From assembly GCF_054482525.1 (NCBI RefSeq), contig NZ_CM137006.1: a stretch of 64,000 nucleotides of DNA; one strand, given 5' to 3'. A program made the translations under genes and the position numbers. Below the pieces are notes generated by a model, which was not told where the DNA came from, did no database searches, and saw nothing but the letters and a program-made list of their open reading frames with translations. Below are positions 16,136 through 45,752 of the stretch, piece after piece. How positions within the stretch are numbered: position 1 is the first letter of the stretch; every line of letters begins with the position of its first letter.

Positions 16136-16567
16136 ATATTCATCCCTGAAATGTATTAATGAAATAAACGATATTTTACGCGCAATAAATGTTTGGCGCA
16201 TTAGTTGTTTGAGCGAAAAATATCTGGAAAGCAGATCACAGTAAATAAAAAAACCTGCTGGTGAGGCAGGTTCTTTGATTTACTACTTTCAGGCCTAACA
16301 CCACGGCCTGTGCAACATCGTGTTCCAACGAACGAATTATAACCATCGGTGGACCCCGTTGCAATTAAGATAATGAGATTTATAATCCTGACTGTTGGGA
16401 CGTTGCGCCGGATCGAACCCATTTCAAGTCCTGGCTACCGGACGGGTGGTGCCGCAGGTAGTGCCCTGATCCGGAGTGCAACATCGTGGTCCAACATACG
16501 TAAACCAGTATCGACAGGCAGTGTAAGGGTAAGGTGCTGGTGTTGCGCTCCTTAATAAGGAGAGCGA

Positions 16568-16703: not shown

Positions 16704-17176
16704 AATAAAATGATTACATCTTCCATTAATTCACCCGATAACTTTTTTCATATTTATAAATTCATCGATTTTATAATCAACGTACTATTTGGCCGGGATG
16801 TGAATAATCATGGTGGGCTATTGGCGAAAAATATCTGGAAAGTAGATCGTAGAAAATAAAAGAACCTGCTGGTGAGGCAGGTTCTTTTATTTACTACTTT
16901 GATGTTAAGTTACTGATAGTGCAACATGGCATCTCAACGAACGAATTATAACCACCGCTGGACCGTGTTGCAATTAAGATAATGAGATTTATAATCCTGA
17001 CTGTTGGGAAGTTGCGCCGGATCGAACCCATTTCAAGTCCTGGCTACCGGACGGGTGGTGCCGCAGGTAGTGCTCTGATCCGGAGTGCAACATGGCGACT
17101 CAACATACGTAAACCAGTATCGACAGGCAGTGTAAGGGTAAGGTGCTGGTGTTGCGCTCCTTAATAAGGAGAGCGG

Positions 17177-35781: not shown

Positions 35782-36054
35782 ATGTCTCATACCATCCGTG
35801 ATAAACAGAAACTGAAAGCGCGTGCCAGTAAGATTCAGGGCCAGGTCGTGGCGCTCAAGAAAATGCTCGACGAGCCGCACGAATGCGCTGCAGTTTTACA
35901 ACAGATTGCTGCTATCCGTGGCGCGGTAAACGGTCTGATGCGGGAAGTGATTAAAGGTCATCTGACGGAACACATCGTTCACCAGGGGGATGAGCTAAAA
36001 CGTGAAGAAGATCTGGATGTCGTTCTGAAGGTGCTGGATTCTTATATCAAATAA
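35782..36054 (+). CDS. rcnR: Ni/Co-responsive repressor RcnR (CsoR/RcnR family)
   Basis: 90 aa; divergent from rcnA. Confidence 0.9.
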
Positions 36055-36142
36055 TTTATTAACGCTATTGTAAAACTGCCGTTTTTCCTCGTTTACAACG
36101 GGTGCGCTGGACATTACCATCCTCCTCTGCGATTTATCATCG

Positions 36143-36224
36143 CAACCAAACGACTCGGGGTGCCCTTCTGCGTGAAGGCTGAGAAATACCCGTATCACCT
36201 GATCTGGATAATGCCAGCGTAGGG
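36143..36224 (+). repeat. attL-like direct repeat: orphan copy of the 5' 82 nt of the thiM TPP-riboswitch leader
   Basis: 82/82 identity with 44023-44104, checked by eye. Confidence 0.85.
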
Positions 36225-36307
36225 GGCCAAAATAGTCTTGAAAATTATGTGGTTGTATCTCTTTTTGACCATAAATCATGCTGTTAAGGTACAAAAAGGG
36301 GTCGTTT

Positions 36308-37615
36308 ATGAGGTCAAGAACTCTCCCATACACATTTCAGCGAAACGGTAATTACTATCTACAAATCCGGCTTTCGGATGGTCGGATATACAAAAAATCA
36401 CTTTTTACTGACAGTTATCGCGAAGCATCGGCGTTGATGATTGGCCTTACTCCGCACATTCCTTTCGTTAAATCACTCGCTACTCCGTTGCCGCAATTTA
36501 ATAAGTTTGTTTCAAACTTGATCGCTTCGTCACGTAACGTAATGATTCCGTTGCCACTCCCTCAGCAATTGAACAATATTTCTAAAGAAGTTTTGCAGCT
36601 TCAACCACCAGCCAAACCGGAAAAGGTACTAACACTTGCTGATGCGTGGGCTATGTACAAGGAGGAAAGAGGTCGAAATTGGACAAAATCGATCTCAATA
36701 GCAAATGAGCGTTATATGGAGGTATTGCTTGTTGTCTTGGGAAAAGAAACAGACGTAACGGCAATCACCAAACAAGATATTAAGCGAGTAATGGAAACTG
36801 TCGAAAACTTACCAAAGCGTGTAGTGCAACCGTATAGGTCAATGACTATTCAGCAACTAATCGAATGTGATGATGTGCTGCCAGAGGATTTAGTTGGTGC
36901 TGAGGCTGTACATAAGCACCTTAAAATCTACAAATCGTTATTCAAAACATTTCTGACTGAAAACAAAGATATTCTATCTAAGTCTCCGACTGATGGAATA
37001 GTAGCGGCACCATCCAAAGCTAGGTTTGGTGCATACAGTGCAGCAGAAATGAAAAAATTTGTAGGATGGGCACTAAAGCAGCCTGATGGATGGCAGAAGT
37101 GGATCACTTTGTTGTTGGCGTACACAGGAGCCAGAAGAGGTGAGATTGCTAAACTGGAGAAGTCGCAGATCAAATTTGATGAAGATAGCCAGCGGCACTA
37201 TCTTCTGATCGCGGAAAGAAGGCTGGGTAAAACTGAGAATGCTACAAGACAGGTAGTGATTCATCCCAAACTGATTGAGTGGGGGTTTCTGGATTTTGTT
37301 AACCGCCAATGGAAAGAGAAAATCTTTTCGGAAGTCTCAGGTCGAAATATGTCAAAGATAGGTAAAGTTCTTTCAGATGTTCGTGATCAGCTTGATATTC
37401 CTTATCTTGATGATTATGGGCAGCGGCGCTTGGTGCATAGTTTCCGGCATACTATGATTTCTACTTGTTTAGCTGGTTGGGTGAGTAATTTGGCGCATCT
37501 GCAACAGGTGGTAGGTCATGAAAAGAGTGGAGTAGGGATTACCCAGCGTTATCTGCACACATTCCCACTTTCCACCGTTTGTTATGTGATCGATGGTCTT
37601 TGTTGGGAGACTTAG
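36308..37615 (+). CDS. Tyrosine recombinase/integrase
   Basis: Catalytic residues in TGARRGE, HSFRHT and ITQRYLH; start may be 36278 or 36308. Confidence 0.85.
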   Translation: MRSRTLPYTFQRNGNYYLQIRLSDGRIYKKSLFTDSYREASALMIGLTPHIPFVKSLATPLPQFNKFVSNLIASSRNVMIPLPLPQQLNNISKEVLQLQPPAKPEKVLTLADAWAMYKEERGRNWTKSISIANERYMEVLLVVLGKETDVTAITKQDIKRVMETVENLPKRVVQPYRSMTIQQLIECDDVLPEDLVGAEAVHKHLKIYKSLFKTFLTENKDILSKSPTDGIVAAPSKARFGAYSAAEMKKFVGWALKQPDGWQKWITLLLAYTGARRGEIAKLEKSQIKFDEDSQRHYLLIAERRLGKTENATRQVVIHPKLIEWGFLDFVNRQWKEKIFSEVSGRNMSKIGKVLSDVRDQLDIPYLDDYGQRRLVHSFRHTMISTCLAGWVSNLAHLQQVVGHEKSGVGITQRYLHTFPLSTVCYVIDGLCWET

Positions 37616-37743
37616 TTATTCGTGTATCCTTCTTAGTGTATAACCAGCTAATAATTTGTAGATTTTTATTGTCTGAGATCAAAAATTTTCACAACTAATT
37701 TACAATAATAACTTAAGATGAATTTAGGCTTAGTGAGTCTTCT

Positions 37744-38469
37744 ATGGTTAAAAATTTAGGCAAAAAATACAAGTATGGCGATCAACCGATAAGAGCTATT
37801 ACCATACAGATAATTGCTAATCAGTTTGGTGGGGCTGCAACGGCTAAGCAGGTAGATGATTATCTTAGAAAGCTATTTCCATCTTATAAAGATAATACTT
37901 GGCTCAATTTAATTGCTAATACAGTTAATTGTAAGCGGAGCTACTGGAGTTTCAACAAAACTGCCCGACGAACTGATGATGTAACTCATCGGCATCATAA
38001 GTATGACCGATTGTTCAAGCGTGGAAATATTTTTGAAATCTATCAACCATCTGTGCACGGTATTTGGGAATTATACCAGGATTTAGAAGGGATGTGGCGT
38101 TATCGTCAAGTAAAATCGGTTTTCGAAGAAGCTGTTGAGACGGCTGCAAAATTATCTTCAGTGGAACGAAAGCAAATTTTAGCGACAGAAAGTAAAATCC
38201 CGGAACTAATCGAAGTAACAACACGAGTTTATAAACGAAGCCCATATGTAGTTGCTGAAGTTCTTTTGAGAGCAAATGGAAAATGTCAATATTGTAAGCG
38301 AGATGCTCCTTTTCTAAAGGAAGATGGTACTCCATTTCTAGAAGTTCATCATATTGAGTGGCTTTCAAAGGGGGGGGAGGACTCTGTGGAAAATGCTATT
38401 GCATTATGTCCTAATTGCCATAGACAAGCCCATTATGGCGATCTGACATTACTACCTGTTAATAAATAG
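37744..38469 (+). CDS. HNH nuclease with McrA-like C-terminal domain and unrecognised N-terminal domain (candidate type IV restriction enzyme)
   Basis: C-terminus CQYCKRDAPFLKEDGTPFLEVHHIEWLSKGGEDSVENAIALCPNCHRQAHYG closely parallels the McrA HNH motif as I recall it. Confidence 0.7.
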   Translation: MVKNLGKKYKYGDQPIRAITIQIIANQFGGAATAKQVDDYLRKLFPSYKDNTWLNLIANTVNCKRSYWSFNKTARRTDDVTHRHHKYDRLFKRGNIFEIYQPSVHGIWELYQDLEGMWRYRQVKSVFEEAVETAAKLSSVERKQILATESKIPELIEVTTRVYKRSPYVVAEVLLRANGKCQYCKRDAPFLKEDGTPFLEVHHIEWLSKGGEDSVENAIALCPNCHRQAHYGDLTLLPVNK

Positions 38470-38546
38470 GCTTGATGAAAGTTCTATTTCTATATTTTTC
38501 AATATACAAATTTCCCCAAAAACGGCGTGAATATCACGCCGATCAA

Positions 38547-38894
38547 TCATACTTCAGAACACATACTCAATGTGTAAACAGCCATCTCCCCATCGGGATT
38601 AGAAGGGCGTAATACAAATATCGGTATACTGCCATTGTCAATGTATGTGGCTGCAACCCCTCCGTCAGGTGTAGCATACATCTTTGCGATGCTTTTTTGA
38701 CCTACAAAATCAAGTCTCCAAGTTTTACCGCCAAGATTTATGGTCATTTTTTTATCTTGTATATCAAAAGTTGAATCTACAGAAACTTTCTGACTTCCCG
38801 AGTCAATATGACCTTCCTGTATTGCTTTACAGGAAAAGGTTGTGGCGTGGCCCATCACTGGAATTAACAAAGCGGCAAATACTAGTTTTTTCAT
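38547..38894 (-). CDS. Small secreted protein, possibly lipoprotein (about 115 aa)
   Basis: Signal peptide MKKLVFAALLIPVMGHA; no recognisable domain. Confidence 0.5.
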   Translation of the reverse strand: MKKLVFAALLIPVMGHATTFSCKAIQEGHIDSGSQKVSVDSTFDIQDKKMTINLGGKTWRLDFVGQKSIAKMYATPDGGVAATYIDNGSIPIFVLRPSNPDGEMAVYTLSMCSEV

Positions 38895-39004
38895 TTGTCT
38901 CCCTTGGTGTGTCAAATGGATGGTGATGCTAATAATACATGATTGATTCAAAATGTCACGATTAGTGCGTGGTTAATTGGTGCGTCAAATTGCATCTTTG
39001 TGCC

Positions 39005-39469
39005 ATGCGAAAGAATCTGAGATACCTTTTTGGACAACGAGTAAAAGAGTTCCGTATAGCTATTGGCTTAAGCCAAGAGGCCTTTGCAGATCGGTGTGGT
39101 TTTGCACGTAGTTATATGAGTCGAATTGAGCGTGGTTGCTCTAATGCATCTCTTGATGCAATTGAGGTTCTGGCTGACGCTTTGCGTATTGAGCCTTGGC
39201 AGTTACTGGCTTCTGATTCAAGGAAACCTGATGATCAGGAGGTACTTGTTCCTTATGCTGCAGATGGGTCGTGTTTTCATCCAGGATTGGCAAGTACTCG
39301 CGATGGTTCGTTTAGAGTAGGGGAAAAATCAGCCCAGAAACGTTTCAGTTCGTTCAATGAAGCTCTCGAATACCTTCGTGGAATGGAAACCGCGAAGTGG
39401 CGTAGGCCTAATGCTAGTGGTAATTGGGGAATTGTATCTGCGGTTAAATGGGATCGACTGAATCAATAA
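39005..39469 (+). CDS. XRE-family HTH protein with about 80-aa C-terminal domain of unknown function
   Basis: N-terminal HTH (LSQEAFADRCGFARSYMSRIERG); start placed at MRKNLRYL. Confidence 0.65.
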   Translation: MRKNLRYLFGQRVKEFRIAIGLSQEAFADRCGFARSYMSRIERGCSNASLDAIEVLADALRIEPWQLLASDSRKPDDQEVLVPYAADGSCFHPGLASTRDGSFRVGEKSAQKRFSSFNEALEYLRGMETAKWRRPNASGNWGIVSAVKWDRLNQ

Positions 39470-39635
39470 GATATCAGTAATTTTCGGGCCACTCCACAAG
39501 GCAATAAGTGGCTTAGTGGTGATTATCGAAGGGGAATACAAGCGAGCACCTAGGCACCATTGCAAGAACCGCTCAACGCTGAGATCAGCAAGCCCCGATT
39601 TTTGCCGACCGTCCCTGTCAAATATCAAGGAGGCA

Positions 39636-40187
39636 TTACGCCACCTGCTCTTTCTTGATACGTTGCACCGTCTGCGTGCTGACACTGAAATCTTTTGCTA
39701 CGCTCCGAATTGAGCCACCATTCGCGAGAGCGGCAGCAATTCCCGCTCGATCAATTGCTTTTCCATTACCACGTTTTGCTATACGTCCAGCGGCCTTGGC
39801 TGCGGCGATCCCTTCACGTTGACGCTCAAGCATCATTTCACGTTCCATTTGTGCCACTGCTGCAAGAACTGTGAGCATCATATTCCCTGCGGGAGAGTTC
39901 TTTCCTGTCTTAAAGTCTTCTTTATGGAAATGCACAGACACGCCGCGCTTTGTTAATTGCTCTACAGTTGCCAGAAGGTCGGCTGTATTACGACAAAGGC
40001 GATCAATACTATGGACGTGTAACACGTCACCCTCCCGCACATAGTTCATCATTGCCTCAAACTGTGGGCGCTGAGTGTTCTTGCCTGACGCTTTATCTTC
40101 AAAGACTTTATCAAGAGTTACTCCTGCTAATTGACGGTCTGTGTTTTGTTGCACAGTCGATACCCTAATGTATCCAATATTAGCCAT
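39636..40187 (-). CDS. Serine recombinase (resolvase/invertase family)
   Basis: N-terminal IGYIRVSTVQQNTDRQ with catalytic Ser; C-terminal HTH. Confidence 0.85.
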   Translation of the reverse strand: MANIGYIRVSTVQQNTDRQLAGVTLDKVFEDKASGKNTQRPQFEAMMNYVREGDVLHVHSIDRLCRNTADLLATVEQLTKRGVSVHFHKEDFKTGKNSPAGNMMLTVLAAVAQMEREMMLERQREGIAAAKAAGRIAKRGNGKAIDRAGIAAALANGGSIRSVAKDFSVSTQTVQRIKKEQVA

Positions 40188-40674
40188 CTTCTTTTTTCTT
40201 CTGTATTGATTTGTGTGTAGTGATTATTGAACGTGTTGATTAGGTGTGTAAAGTACTTTTTTCACTACGAAATTCGAAGTTTTTTAGTGTGGTGATTTAG
40301 CCTGCCTTATCACTACACTTCTTGCATGAGAATCATGTAGTTACATTTTGGTAAAATTAGCAAGCTATTAAATTGTGTGTTTATTTTGAAAAAATAATTT
40401 TTGTTGCATTAAAGAAAACTTGTTCGACAAATAATAGGTTGATTTTTGATCAATAATTTCTGATAGTGCTCTGTAAGCCGCATTACACAAGGCGCAGCGA
40501 AAGTGATGTAAAAGTGAAGAAAGCTAACATTGCACTTTTAAACTACTTTTCATTGAATTTTTTAGTATGGAATTACACAGGAATAAGTTAGGGATATTCT
40601 ATGATTTACACAGGGAATATAGGGGGATTATGGTATTACACAGAGTGAGTGCTATGTGATGATTGGTAGTAACG

Positions 40675-40782
40675 GTAGGTCACTGTGAACTAGGGGGGTA
40701 GGTCACTGTGAACTAGGGGGGTAGGTCACTGTGAGCTAGGGGGTAGGTCACTGTGAACTAGGGGGTAGGTCACTGTGAACTA
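40675..40782. repeat. Iteron array: five tandem 22-23 bp repeats (gtaggtcactgtgaactaggggg) next to an AT-rich tract
   Basis: Contiguous direct repeats with no spacers, followed by ataagactataataagactattaataaaacta. Confidence 0.8.
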
Positions 40783-41883
40783 CAATAAGACTATAATAAG
40801 ACTATTAATAAAACTATATTAGATTATTAATTAGATCATAATAATAATATTCTTTATATCTATATATATATGATCTTTTGCCTTCCGGCGTTAGCTTCAC
40901 TCTCTGGCAAGCAGCCTTACTCCGCTACCTTTCGGGCTACGTTGGCTGGCCCGTTCCGCTCACACCGAAAGCAAAGCGTTACTTTCTTCGTGTAACTTCG
41001 TTGGCGGTAACGCCCACGAAGGAATACTATTGCGCTGTGCGCAGTAAGAGTAATCACCTAACCAATCATCTGATTGCTTACGTGTTAACTCTCTCTAACT
41101 CTTAATTACCCTCCTACATTTAATAACTCTCGTTATTCTCTGTAGTTGTGTAATTACTCGAAGAGAGAGCGGCTAAAGCTCAATTACACTCTGCTTTCCT
41201 CGTGTAATTTCACTAAGCCTCAATACAATTTCACTTCCTACATTCTGTAGTCGTGTAATTGTTTTCGGTGGAAAAGCCAGAGGCGACACCGAAAGAGAAT
41301 TCTGATCTTATTAATCTTATCTATCTTAGTTATCTTACTTACTTTATCTACTTTATTATTAATAATAGCTTTATAAGCTCTCTGTGTAGCTCTCTGACGC
41401 AAGAAACAGAGTTCAGGAAGGGAATCACCTTAGAAAAGTGTTCTTTGCGTCATAATGTGTTTTATGAAGGATTCAGAGGTGTTTCATAACAGAGATGTAT
41501 AGAGGATACTTTAGGTAATTAAAAATAAGGGGTCTAAATGCTTCTCTAACAGCATTAAGCAGGGTAGAGAATGGAAACCGCTTTGCCTACATATATAAAC
41601 TCACTACAGGGCTTTACAGAGCGTTTTATAAAGTGACTCTCTGTTTTATATCTACCATCACCTTTTCATATACCTAACAAATACAAAATAAGCCCCTTAA
41701 ATAAGCCTCTGGCGAGCTAAACAGCCATTACATAAGAGAATGTATTGCTTTTATCAAAACCTCGTTAGAACGCGTTTTAGAGCGTTTTAGCGGATAATGA
41801 AGAATAGCACTACACAGGAGAGCACGAATTGCTAAGAAAAAATGTAACTACATGAAAAAGATCAGATTTTTTGTGAAAAGGTA

Positions 41884-41912
41884 TTGACAAACGTCTCTTT
41901 CTGTGCAATAAT
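41884..41912 (+). promoter_or_regulatory. Candidate sigma70 promoter for the downstream operon
   Basis: TTGACA, 17-bp spacer, then TGcAATAAT extended -10. Confidence 0.45.
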
Positions 41913-42038
41913 AGGTATTAGAGGGACAGGAATAGATTCTTATCCTCTAAATAATTAAACCAATGCACCGCACTTTGAAGCCCAAGGCTTGTAAGGTGTG
42001 TTTTTTCTTTTAACCAAATAGAATAAGGAGGCTAATTA

Positions 42039-42227
42039 ATGAAATATTTTACTCCACAGGATGTAGTAGAAGCCTGGAAACGTGGTGAGATCAACCGCTT
42101 TAAAGTAAGGATGTATAGAAACACCGCTCGCCGTTGTGGTTATCCAGAGCGTGAAAAATGTTTTGACGATGCACTAAAAATTATTGATGAACTGCGTAAA
42201 GCTGAGAAAGAAGCAGAGAAAAAATAA
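42039..42227 (+). CDS. Small hypothetical protein (62 aa)
   Basis: Strong SD aggagg; first gene of a tightly packed operon. Confidence 0.55.
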   Translation: MKYFTPQDVVEAWKRGEINRFKVRMYRNTARRCGYPEREKCFDDALKIIDELRKAEKEAEKK

Positions 42228-42249
42228 TAGACAAGAGAAGGAGAAAACT

Positions 42250-42417
42250 ATGAGCGAAACTAAGAAACCAATTCCGCGCACTTACCTACACGTTGACCCT
42301 GAAATCTTCAAGGTTTTATTTGCTGAAGCCAAGAAAAGGCAAATTATGGTCAGTGATTTGATGTTAGAAATCATTACTGAAGCAGCAGAGAACATCAAAC
42401 AAAAAAAGGGTAAGTGA
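42250..42417 (+). CDS. Putative ribbon-helix-helix DNA-binding protein (55 aa)
   Basis: SD aaggag; beta-strand RTYLHVDPEIF followed by two helices, typical of CopG/Arc-type RHH. Confidence 0.55.
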   Translation: MSETKKPIPRTYLHVDPEIFKVLFAEAKKRQIMVSDLMLEIITEAAENIKQKKGK

Positions 42418-42468
42418 TCCTCATTCACTTTAGTAGCGCATTAAGCGTGATTTATAAGGAGATTTTTA

Positions 42469-43158
42469 ATGATTAATCAACTAACTTTTACAAAACACTA
42501 TGACACGTTTGATAATGTATCAAAGATTTATTCTGATAAATTCCCTCAAGGAAAAGATTTAGATCTATTACATATTGTGCTTTATTTTCGATTCCTTAGT
42601 TATCAGGAAAACAACCTTAATTGTTATGAAAGTCACGAAACATTAGCTAAGATTTTTAAGTCTTCAGCGTCAACAATTAAACGTAAGATAAACGATCTTA
42701 AAGAGATGGGATTATTAGAAACATCCCCACATCCTGATCCGTATATTTCATCTTTGATTTACAATGCTCTCCCTCTCACAGATGCACATATTACTCCCCC
42801 AGGAGAATCATCACTCTCTGATCTTTCTGAGGCAGAAGAAGCACAGGAACAACCTAAAGGCCATAAACAGCCTTCTTTTGATGTTCTTGATGATTGGGAT
42901 ACGCCTTTACCCTGGGAGACGGAAGAAACACCTGTTTCATCAAGTGAAAAAGTAGCTAATGATAATGAGGAGGATGTGTTAGAGAATTTTGCCTCTCTTA
43001 TCATCCAGGAGAAACACACAAGAACAGGAGGAGCATCATTTATTGAGTTTGCAAATTCACTAGCTTGTAGATACGGGCTAAAACGACCAAATGGTATTGA
43101 GGCATATTTTTCTAAGAATTACCCAAATATATACGATGACTTTGATATTCCATTTTAA
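42469..43158 (+). CDS. HTH protein with acidic linker and SSB-like C-terminal tail (229 aa); possible replication or recruitment protein
   Basis: SD aaggag; HTH-like ETLAKIFKSSASTIKRKINDLKEMGLLE; acidic low-complexity middle; C-terminus YDDFDIPF resembles the E. coli SSB tip DFDDDIPF. Confidence 0.6.
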   Translation: MINQLTFTKHYDTFDNVSKIYSDKFPQGKDLDLLHIVLYFRFLSYQENNLNCYESHETLAKIFKSSASTIKRKINDLKEMGLLETSPHPDPYISSLIYNALPLTDAHITPPGESSLSDLSEAEEAQEQPKGHKQPSFDVLDDWDTPLPWETEETPVSSSEKVANDNEEDVLENFASLIIQEKHTRTGGASFIEFANSLACRYGLKRPNGIEAYFSKNYPNIYDDFDIPF

Positions 43159-43169
43159 TAAGGAGGGTT

Positions 43170-43415
43170 ATGATTCAATATTTAGTAAAAAATCAAGTAG
43201 ACAGAATTCAGTGTAATGACACAGGAAAACGCATCTACGAGACACTTGTTTACCTCTATAAAGGAAAGCCAACACCGCTAAAATATAGCGATGTGTTACA
43301 TCGAGCAGGTTGCTCTGAGTCAGGTTTAAAATTCTGGCTGAAACAGCTATCAAATTTCGGTGTTATTGAAATGAAAGAGCTGTCTTTTTCTACATTCAAC
43401 CTCAAGAAGTTATAG
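43170..43415 (+). CDS. Small winged-helix-like protein (81 aa)
   Basis: SD aaggagg; last gene of the operon. Confidence 0.5.
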   Translation: MIQYLVKNQVDRIQCNDTGKRIYETLVYLYKGKPTPLKYSDVLHRAGCSESGLKFWLKQLSNFGVIEMKELSFSTFNLKKL

Positions 43416-43580
43416 AAAATAGAATTCATCTATTCCACGCTCTAATTCTATTTCTCTGTTTAATATAAAAGGAAAACATTATTATGGTAATAGCTATGTG
43501 GTGGTTGTTGTTTTTTATGCTCGTAGAAACATATGCAAGTAAGTCTGGAAAACAAAAATAATATATTGATGATTTGTTTT

Positions 43581-43820
43581 TTATAACTTCGTGGTGTCAA
43601 GTCCAGCAGCTTTGAGTCGCTCGGTAAGATTTCTCATTTTGCTGAACTCTGTACCAAAGCTGGCTTTAAGTCCTACACCTTCACAAAACTCTTTTGCCGT
43701 AACCTTTTTCAGATGGTCAGCATATTTGATCATCTGGAGGTGCATTTCCATCGTTTGGCTATTTCGTGGTGCGCTGCTAATGGCTTGCTTAATGTTCTCG
43801 TAGATCTGGGTTTCTGTCAT
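43581..43820 (-). CDS. Small helical hypothetical protein (79 aa), convergent with the operon
   Basis: ORF only; low-GC context. Confidence 0.45.
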   Translation of the reverse strand: MTETQIYENIKQAISSAPRNSQTMEMHLQMIKYADHLKKVTAKEFCEGVGLKASFGTEFSKMRNLTERLKAAGLDTTKL

Positions 43821-44022
43821 TTTTTATCTCACCTATCAAATTTAGATAAATAATATAAATTAGCAAATTAAGATAATCAATAGTTTTTATCATCTGAATG
43901 ATAGATGTTAAATGTTTCTTTTTCATTTCTGATATGGGGTACAAAATGGGGTACACAGAGAAGAAGCAATTAATGGAGGCGAGCTTGCATCTGCAAGCCA
44001 CTTCCCCTAAGCTGGCACAAAA

Positions 44023-44166
44023 TATAGAGATTCAACCAAACGACTCGGGGTGCCCTTCTGCGTGAAGGCTGAGAAATACCCGTATCACCTGATCTGGATA
44101 ATGCCAGCGTAGGGAAGTCACGGACCACCAGGTCATTGCTTCTTCACGTTATGGCAGGAGCAAACT
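44023..44166 (+). promoter_or_regulatory. TPP riboswitch (thi-box) in the thiM leader
   Basis: Contains ctgagaaatacccgtatcacctgatctggataatgccagcgtagggaa immediately upstream of the thiM start codon. Confidence 0.9.
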
Positions 44167-44955
44167 ATGCAAGTCGACCTGCTGAGTTCCGCGCAATCTG
44201 CGCACGCGTTACACCTTTTTCACCAACATTCCCCTCTTGTGCACTGCATGACCAACGATGTGGTGCAAACCTTTACTGCCAATACCTTGCTGGCGCTCGG
44301 TGCATCGCCAGCGATGGTTATCGAAACCGAAGAGGCCAGTCAGTTTGCGGCTATCGCCAGTGCGTTGCTGATTAACGTTGGCACGCTGACGCAGCCACGC
44401 GCACAGGCGATGCGTGCCGCCGTTGAACAGGCAAAACGCTCTCAAACACCCTGGATGCTTGATCCAGTAGCGGTGGGTGCACTCGATTATCGCCGCCGTT
44501 TTTGTCTGGAACTTCTGTCTCATAAGCCAACCGCCATACGTGGTAATGCTTCGGAAATCATGGCATTAGCTGGCGTTGCTAATGGTGGACGGGGAGTGGA
44601 TACCACTGACGCCGCAGCTAACGCGATACCCGCTGCACAAACACTGGCACGGGAAACTGGCGCAATCGTCGTGGTCACTGGCGAGATGGATTATGTTACC
44701 GATGGACATCGTATCATTGGTATTCACGGTGGCGATCCGTTAATGACCAAAGTGGTAGGAACTGGCTGTGCATTATCGGCGGTTGTCGCTGCCTGTTGTG
44801 CGTTACCAGGCGATATGCTGGAAAATGTCGCATCTGCCTGTCACTGGATGAAACAAGCCGGAGAACGCGCAGTCGCCAGAAGCGAGGGGCCAGGCAGTTT
44901 TGTTCCACATTTCCTTGATGCGCTCTGGCAATTGACGCAGGAGGTGCAGGCATGA
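44167..44955 (+). CDS. thiM: Hydroxyethylthiazole kinase
   Basis: 262 aa; matches ThiM as I recall it. Confidence 0.92.
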
Positions 44956-45752
44956 AACGAATTAACGCTCTGACGATTGCCGGTACTGATCCGAGTGGTG
45001 GTGCGGGGATTCAGGCCGATCTTAAAACCTTCTCGGCACTTGGCGCTTATGGTTGCTCAGTGATTACTGCACTGGTGGCGCAAAATACCCGTGGCGTACA
45101 GTCGGTGTATCGCATTGAGCCTGATTTTGTCGCCGCCCAGCTCGATTCGGTGTTCAGCGATGTGCGAATCGACACCACTAAAATCGGTATGTTGGCGGAA
45201 ACCGATATTGTTGAAGCGGTGGCAGAACGGTTGCAACGTTATCAGATCCAAAACGTGGTACTCGACACCGTTATGCTGGCAAAAAGCGGCGACCCGCTGC
45301 TTTCACCTTCGGCGGTTGCTACGCTGCGCAGTCGATTATTGCCACAGGTTTCATTAATAACGCCAAACTTGCCCGAAGCTGCTGCCTTGCTCGACGCGCC
45401 ACACGCGCGCACCGAACAGGAAATGCTGGAACAAGGGCGATCGCTGTTGGCGATGGGCTGTGGCGCAGTGCTAATGAAAGGTGGTCATCTGGATGATGAA
45501 CAAAGCCCGGACTGGCTGTTTACCCGCGAGGGTGAACAACGGTTTACGGCACCGCGCATTATGACCAAAAACACCCACGGCACTGGTTGTACACTCTCTG
45601 CGGCGTTGGCTGCACTACGCCCGCGCCATACAAACTGGGCAGACACCGTCCAGGAGGCAAAAAGCTGGCTTTCATCGGCGTTAGCCCAGGCCGACACGCT
45701 GGAAGTTGGTCACGGTATTGGTCCGGTTCACCACTTCCACGCCTGGTGGTGA
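44952..45752 (+). CDS. thiD: Hydroxymethylpyrimidine/phosphomethylpyrimidine kinase
   Basis: 266 aa; overlaps thiM stop; PfkB-type kinase. Confidence 0.92.

Follow-up and report, generated by a model that had tools for sequence, protein, structure and literature searches.

An integrative island in the thiM riboswitch of Escherichia coli and its probable outward promoter for thiMD

We analysed a stretch of 64,000 nucleotides from contig NZ_CM137006.1 (assembly GCF_054482525.1), referred to here as the window, in which a 7.8-kb insert (36225–44032) lies between rcnR (35782–36054) and thiM (44167–44955) and occupies the thiamine pyrophosphate (TPP) riboswitch of the thiM leader. A query across the right junction of this island (43400–44250) is 100% identical to the chromosome of Escherichia coli PCN033. 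The right end of the island, 43581–44032, probably combines an autorepressor gene, arm-type repeats and an outward promoter that drives thiMD through a chimeric, complete riboswitch.

The arrangement that we propose for this end runs as follows. A leftward autorepressor gene resembling rptR, with an AT-rich promoter/operator from 43821 to about 43900, would be followed by integrase arm-type repeats at 43934–43955 and then by an outward promoter in the last ~50 bp, initiating at about A44019. The attP site of the element would carry a copy of the thiM leader together with most of the aptamer, and strand exchange would take place near the 3' end of an 82-bp identity with the host. After integration, thiMD would be read from the island promoter through a complete riboswitch whose 5' part is island-derived and whose 3' P1 strand and expression platform are host-derived, giving a 5' untranslated region of ~148 nt compared with 150–151 nt in the native transcript. 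The native promoter, its start site and the host 5' half of the aptamer would be left stranded at attL, facing the integrase gene (int).

The island and its attachment site

A perfect 82-bp direct repeat places one copy on each flank of the island, attL at 36143–36224 and attR at 44033–44114, both on the plus strand as determined by direct comparison. The uninterrupted site was rebuilt in silico by joining 36000–36224 to 44115–44300, and this joined sequence is found unbroken in 4728 of the 5426 complete E. coli genomes. Additionally, the exact match of island-free genomes to the right-junction query starts at 44033 (query position 634). Thus, the right boundary is real and is not a chance repeat.

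The repeat comprises the opening 82 nt of the thiM TPP riboswitch region. Both of its copies score as TPP aptamers above the Rfam RF00059 gathering threshold of 54.3 bits, which places the island within the thiM riboswitch. The attR copy belongs to a complete aptamer (44036–44132, plus strand; 71.2 bits, model positions 1–105) that is also annotated as a riboswitch in RefSeq, its expression platform extends to the start codon at 44167, and the whole sequence from 44033 to the ATG is identical to that of island-free E. coli. The attL copy, which corresponds to the 5' part of the aptamer, is matched at 36146–36241 with 61.3 bits, and two of its P1 pairs are non-canonical and hence broken.

The gene at 36308–37615 (plus strand), 84 bp from attL, encodes a tyrosine recombinase according to Pfam (PF00589, E 8e-7), phrog_1 (integrase, E 9e-27) and the RefSeq annotation. 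The same site is also occupied by islands of other cargo, with integrases 74–78% identical; the integrase of one such island is 78% identical to that of the island described here. We are fairly confident that 36225–44032 is an integrative island and that the thiM TPP riboswitch is the target of its tyrosine recombinase.

Because the two repeat copies in PCN033 are 100% identical, the origin of the attR copy is unreadable from the window alone, and we turned to relatives in which the copies differ. In Lelliottia, the attL (host) copy carries the P3 sequence CCCCATCGCTGATGGGG and the host leader, whereas at attR the P3 sequence is CCCTTCCACGTGAAGG and the leader, CAATCAACATG, is that of the island. 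For E. coli GPEC548, the attR and native copies disagree in the leader and at a single base of the P3 loop. A further relative, in an 'ExPEC' strain from mussels (L018, NZ_CM172609.1, 935–1110 and 5900–6210), has an integrase fragment 74% identical to the one in the window, and its attL and attR have only the 13-bp sequence AATGCCAGCGTAG in common. That island brings no 5' aptamer half at attR, and the thiM riboswitch is destroyed. This short-core, aptamer-destroying form was found in 12 of the 5426 genomes compared with 565 for the restoring form. Since AATGCCAGCGTAG is the sole sequence shared by attL and attR of the short-core relative, the corresponding positions in the window, 44100–44112, are the most likely region of strand exchange. 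By homology, most of the attR repeat (to ~44100) would then have been brought in by the island, and the 82-bp "repeat" would be an attP-borne mimic that rebuilds the aptamer.

The preliminary description of this junction had raised the possibility that thiamine-responsive regulation is altered. We compared minimum free energy folds of the leader with either 5' end and found them to be the same, the 5' hairpin apart. Relative to the native leader, the differences are the promoter, which is a weaker match to the consensus, and the loss of this small hairpin. There is no indication of altered TPP sensing, and the evidence speaks neither for nor against altered thiamine-responsive regulation; the two promoters may differ in strength and in the control exerted on them. 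The native thiM transcript opens with a 6-bp hairpin, CUGCGAU-UUAUC-AUCGCA (36126–36146), which is absent from the island-derived leader, and its loss could affect mRNA stability.

Transcription start sites and the right-end promoter

In order to locate the native promoter, we scanned the plus strand from rcnR to the repeat. The only consensus-like promoter there has a -35 element TTTACA at 36092–36097, a 17-bp spacer and a -10 element TACCAT at 36115–36120, with a position weight matrix (PWM) score of 11.7 bits. The K-12 thiM start mapped by 5' rapid amplification of cDNA ends is listed as 'B2104 -151' with the tag Tctgcgatttatcatcgcaac (Mendoza-Vargas 2009, PMC2760140 Table S1). This tag occurs once in the window, at T36126, which is 151 nt before the ATG in the empty-site arrangement. 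The native start thus lies 17 nt upstream of the 82-bp repeat, and the -35 and -10 elements are outside it as well. No promoter could fit inside the repeat, because the P1 strand of the aptamer starts ~10 nt into it. A thiM start and promoter contained wholly within the 82 bp had been named beforehand as the observation that would speak against dependence on island DNA; both were found outside, at 36126 and 36092–36120.

Because the native promoter and start lie left of attL, they remain there, now facing the integrase gene, and the insertion puts 7.9 kb between the native promoter and thiM. At attL, the promoter, the start at 36126 and the 82-nt aptamer copy lead directly into the integrase gene (ATG 36308), and the promoter scan gave no further plus-strand promoter-like site from the core to int. 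We also considered whether the aptamer remnant at attL still regulates int and judged this unlikely: its P1 is broken, and the AGUC that could restore it in PCN033 is not conserved in GPEC548 or Lelliottia.

Start sites for thiM in a strain with island-derived DNA at this position come from a Cappable-seq study of O157:H7 EDL933. Its summary table gives start-codon-to-start-site distances of 137, 148 and 201 for EDL933_RS15540, and of 150 for MG1655 (RegulonDB) (Zehentner et al. 2023, PMC10469882 Table S5 sheet 3). EDL933 and PCN033 differ at one position in the 57 bp preceding the repeat. Carried over to the window, the tabulated -148, -137 and -201 starts correspond to A44019, 44030 and 43966, all of which are in island-derived DNA; the -137 and -201 positions are secondary to the one at -148. 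By these tabulated positions, the island-driven start is 2–3 nt from the position of the native one, and the DNA upstream of 44033 is unrelated. The study's authors score thiM as a conserved-start gene (148 vs 150 nt; PMC10469882). Taken together with the location of the native promoter, the tabulated starts uphold the earlier proposal that any promoter now serving thiM must lie in, or read through from, island DNA. A literature search for start-site maps of BL21 or E. coli B yielded nothing usable.

The promoter that we propose for this start consists of a -35 element TTGCAT at 43985–43990, a 17-bp spacer and a -10 element TAAGCT at 44008–44013 on the plus strand, and draws on the PWM, on conservation and on the EDL933 start. 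Among plus-strand candidates in 43821–44045 it has the highest PWM score. The A at position 2 and the T at position 6 of the -10 element are present and invariant, and A44019, the equivalent of the tabulated -148 start, lies 6 nt past TAAGCT, within the 5–9 nt range expected of sigma-70. The promoter call rests on the published start sites, since consensus and PWM scans are insufficient by themselves, and we infer the exact assignment of the two hexamers. The same promoter would be expected to fire in PCN033.

The block containing these hexamers is conserved well beyond E. coli. A comparative scan, which used an exact pattern and one genome per species, detected the same junction beside thiM riboswitches in Pluralibacter, two Enterobacter, Atlantibacter, three Citrobacter, Lelliottia and Pantoea. 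A tenth match, on a 307-bp low-coverage contig of an Alkalicoccobacillus assembly, has an E. coli B-like sequence and was excluded from the alignment. Across 14 aligned loci from 8 genera, TTGC, the 17-bp spacing and TAA(G/T)CT are invariant. A palindrome, GCTTGC-ATCT-GCAAGC (43983–43998), overlaps the -35 element; in the 14 loci its stem is kept and its 4-base loop is free to vary (GCTTGC-N4-GCAAGC), and the few stem changes (GCGAGC, GTAAGC) would retain G-U pairs in plus-strand RNA. The palindrome may act as a protein-binding site, or may form a hairpin in the RNA of the -201 transcript. In Pantoea sp. BAV 3049 (L017, 3951–4400), the island-type promoter block and leader stand immediately before thiM, with no integrase and no arm repeats, and apbC and metG lie beyond two small genes. 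We considered a captured thiM promoter of another genus as the source of the block. Only this one Pantoea representative has it, and being without arm repeats it looks more like a deep remnant than an origin, although it may hint at the source of the cassette.

Several strains have lost the native promoter and retain the right end of the island. The native promoter region is absent from 445 of the 5426 complete E. coli genomes, and the island right arm is present in 565 of them (~10%), including O157:H7/O55:H7, E. coli B laboratory strains and GF3-3. Four right-arm strains were examined, and the native promoter is missing in all. O157:H7 (BB24-1, EDL933) retains 2.3 kb of the island with three genes, all on the minus strand and one of them an rptR homologue; int, the attL copy and the native promoter are missing. 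E. coli B and GF3-3 are independent cases in which only island remnants persist and the native promoter is gone. In all three the remnant is bordered by rcnR (or IS1) on one side and by thiM on the other. In GF3-3 the whole upstream part has given way to an unrelated insertion, and island similarity starts precisely at the -35 element. In E. coli B C2566 (L004, 7389–16100), the yeh and rcn genes are missing along with the native thiM promoter, and an IS1 borders the place that these occupy in other strains. A tetR(B)/transposase insert, an apparent Tn10 remnant, interrupts the rptR homologue beside thiM.

Islands of the GPEC548 type offer a further arrangement: a plus-strand helicase gene is followed by an intrinsic terminator (GGAGCTTAACGGCTCC then T7), three GGTACA arm repeats and the conserved block. 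Because the terminator lies just upstream of the arm repeats, read-through is unlikely in this type and the thiM transcript must start in the last ~110 bp.

Between the 79-aa gene and attR, the island-derived spacer spans 43821–44032 (212 bp). An island-derived spacer of ~200 bp abutting attR had been described previously, and this stands; its end, set at 44022, is 10 bp short, since TATAGAGATT (44023–44032) is outside the repeat. The two halves of the spacer differ in composition, with 19% GC in 43821–43930 and 45% in 43931–44032 (32% overall, against 48% for the window), so that the earlier label "AT-rich" holds for the gene-proximal half and not for the remainder. A motif search in the spacer identified two direct repeats, ATGGGGTACA, with a 12-bp spacing on the plus strand at 43934–43955, and a similar sequence, GGTACAAAAAGGGGTC, is found at the opposite end of the island (36289–36304). 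Two to three such repeats (or GGGGTCA variants) are found at the equivalent place in 10 related loci, and O157 has one unit deleted. The repeats at 43934–43955 are likely arm-type integrase sites. The sequence GGCACAAAAT (44014–44023), over the -148 start, resembles the arm repeat GGTACAAAAT (43938–43947), and integrase binding there might interfere with the outward promoter.

Weighing the alternatives

Several observations count against an integrative island with an outward promoter. The consensus scan gives no plus-strand promoter at the right junction; the proposed hexamers match the consensus at 3 of 6 positions each (6 of 12 in total), and their PWM score of 7.2 bits falls under the median best score of shuffled sequence, 9.6. 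The start-site data are those of a summary table for O157:H7, from which the PCN033 positions follow by homology. The conserved block is also part of the attP arm/core region, so that its conservation could reflect recombination. Additionally, the attP junction of an excised circle had no match in PLSDB plasmids, IMG/VR or JGI metagenomes, which leaves present mobility unproven, although absence from these databases does not imply immobility.

With so poor a match to the consensus, thiMD in PCN033 might instead be expressed mainly by read-through, with no promoter in the last 50 bp. Transcripts would come either from the plus-strand genes at 42039–43415, running antisense across the rptR-like gene, or from the attL promoter across the whole island. 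Terminator prediction on both strands of 43300–44200 gave no candidate, and read-through could therefore contribute in PCN033. As the main source of thiMD expression we consider it unlikely. It does not account for O157:H7, where all upstream island-remnant genes run opposite to thiM and the native promoter has been lost, and where capped 5' ends are nonetheless tabulated at -148, -137 and -201. Nor does it account for the GPEC548 type, in which a strong intrinsic terminator stands directly before the arm repeats. An attL-driven transcript would have to traverse 7.9 kb, including two opposing genes. Alternatively, the 50–60 bp before attR could be conserved purely for recombination, the EDL933 starts being weak, incidental examples of the 'non-canonical' starts that are numerous in that study (PMC10469882), and thiMD being reduced or deregulated in carriers. 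The placement of the block between the arm-type repeats and the core, the likeness of GGCACAAAAT at the start site to an arm repeat, the palindrome overlapping the -35 element and the non-significant PWM score all fit such a role. We nevertheless regard this as quite unlikely. O157:H7/O55:H7, E. coli B and GF3-3 keep the block beside thiM after losing int, attL and the native promoter, where recombination sites are useless, and the similarity retained in GF3-3 begins exactly at the -35 element. The main start, as tabulated, is moreover placed 2–3 nt from the native one. ThiD, the hydroxymethylpyrimidine phosphate (HMP-P) kinase, is needed for the de novo thiamine pathway, and some promoter is therefore required for thiMD.

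A third alternative concerns the origin of the repeat: the 82 bp would be a plain host duplication, the attR riboswitch would be host DNA throughout, and the contribution of the island would be confined to the DNA upstream of 44033. The complete identity of the PCN033 copies agrees with this. However, the attR copies of Lelliottia and GPEC548 differ from the attL (host) copies in the leader and in P3, and in the relative with the 74% identical integrase fragment the common core is no longer than 13 bp, lying at the 3' end of the 82-bp stretch. Tyrosine recombinases are not known to create duplications of 82 bp; identities of such length are carried in attP. Host duplication thus appears very improbable. 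A more far-reaching version of the outward-promoter reading, which we offer as rather unlikely, is a reciprocal promoter swap by a portable "promoter plus half-riboswitch" cassette, in which thiMD passes to the island promoter while the host promoter, its start and an 82-nt aptamer fragment are fused to int. If so, transcription of int, and with it island stability, would depend on one promoter in the circle and on another after integration, and int expression might be sensitive to thiamine status by way of the aptamer remnant.

If the island does supply the thiMD promoter, it exemplifies a mobile element that inserts into a riboswitch and leaves the operon expressed, by providing a replacement promoter together with the part of the aptamer that the operon would otherwise lack. 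K-12 promoter DNA should not be assumed in work on thiM regulation, in reporter designs or in cross-strain comparisons of start sites. The rare relative with the 13-bp core provides a natural contrast for gauging the benefit that the host draws from the restoring cassette.

The rptR-like gene, related systems and neighbouring features

The 79-aa open reading frame of the preliminary description is present on the minus strand at exactly 43581–43820. It is divergent from thiM and convergent with the last plus-strand genes of the island (42039–43415), and its product is a helix-turn-helix (HTH) repressor homologue (Pfam HTH_73, E 1e-30) entered in RefSeq for PCN033 as WP_000141032.1, HTH-like domain protein. 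The product also matches PDB 9r2z ('Transcription factor'; E 4e-32, 71% identity), which is RptR, the homodimeric repressor of the RRDM defence island of enteropathogenic E. coli (EPEC) (Zhang et al. 2025, PMC12255303). The conserved residues named in that study (Glu25, Glu58, Lys61, Leu69, Ala72 and Leu74) are all in the 79-aa translation. By its sequence, the gene is an RptR homologue.

RptR binds tandem 9-bp repeats with TAGCTA or TAGATA in its own promoter, and full repression needs two sites (PMC12255303). Upstream of the rptR-like gene we found four tandem 9-bp units, TTTAGATAA ATAATATAA ATTAGCAAA TTAAGATAA, at 43841–43876, 21–56 bp before the start codon. A search of 43821–43930 for the canonical 6-bp sites (TAGCTA, TAGATA, TATCTA or TATATA) returned one, TAGATA at 43843–43848, compared with the two sites needed for full repression; the O157 allele has TAGATA and TAGCTA separated by one unit. 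A scan also detected a minus-strand promoter-like sequence, TTGATT-17-TATATT (43880–43852). The tandem units are likely an RptR-type operator and promoter region. Given these units and the minus-strand promoter-like site, the AT-rich half of the spacer is best read as the promoter/operator of the rptR-like gene itself, directed away from thiM.

The likeness to RptR of EPEC therefore extends from the protein, with its length of 79 aa, 71% identity and complete set of named residues, to TAGATA-bearing 9-bp units at a similar distance from the start codon (21–56 bp in PCN033 vs 31–58 bp in EPEC). In contrast, the PCN033 gene has no obvious downstream cargo and one canonical site. Type I restriction-modification genes adjoin 54 of 117 RptR homologues, and other contexts are also reported (PMC12255303); Pfam, phrog and the RefSeq annotation reveal no hsd genes in the island.

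The logic of the thiM island would be that of target-restoring integration. Since a 5' end is replaced and a promoter supplied, the closest parallel among known systems would be the SXT/R391 integrative and conjugative elements in prfC. These, too, are tyrosine-recombinase elements, and they insert at the 5' end of a transcription unit of the host (PMC4344509). The thiM island differs in that a non-coding riboswitch aptamer, and not an N-terminal coding segment, is replaced, and in that it is a 7.8-kb island without conjugation genes. According to Hochhut and Waldor in 1999, SXT reportedly brings a replacement promoter and 5' sequence, and prfC stays functional. Elements in tRNA or tmRNA genes or in icd (phage 21, e14) restore the 3' end of the target from attP, and the host promoter stays in charge. 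The thiM island would resemble them in its long attP-attB identity that rebuilds the target, its int beside att and its varied cargo at one site, and would differ in replacing the 5' end of a target that is a cis-regulatory RNA. Because the 5' end is replaced, the island must bring a promoter. Compared with the E. coli thiM TPP riboswitch as known, the promoter, the first ~14 nt of the leader and (by homology) most of the aptamer would be island-derived here.

The Pcirc promoter of ICEclc is an outward end promoter that drives int in the circular form only. Its counterpart here would similarly lie at the end opposite int and point across att, and in a circle would read the 82-bp core into int; unlike Pcirc, the thiM-island promoter appears to serve the host when integrated. 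Our literature search found no earlier description of integration into a riboswitch aptamer. The site's only trace was an 'rcnR-thiM' row in the supplement of the defence survey by Hochhauser et al. 2023, to which neither a hotspot number nor a mobile-element type is assigned.

The other contents of the island, as judged by Pfam, phrog and RefSeq, are an HNH protein, an XRE-type regulator, a serine invertase and a Rep-like HTH protein. The HNH protein (241 aa, 37744–38469) is probably the 'RM_type_IV' entry of the 7,956-bp, 8-gene 'rcnR-thiM' island (Hochhauser 2023 supplement). Elsewhere, RefSeq annotates cargo at the same site as NACHT and RelA/SpoT genes, or as ImmA/IrrE, 'beta family' and sce7726 genes. 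Five tandem 22–23-bp iterons (GGGGGTAGGTCACTGTGAACTA) at 40671–40787 lie upstream of the Rep-like HTH_36/phrog_270 gene (42469–43158), which suggests a plasmid-like replication module in the island. A phage or satellite origin was dropped, as the integrase had no tblastn match in 50,697 phage records.

Downstream of the island, thiM (44167–44955) and thiD (44952–45752) are both on the plus strand in the open reading frame list and in RefSeq. Elsewhere in the window, two OrzO-P antitoxin RNAs (Rfam RF02083, ~90 bits each) are found on the minus strand at 16247–16322 and 16858–16931, indicating a tandem zor-orz type I toxin-antitoxin locus.

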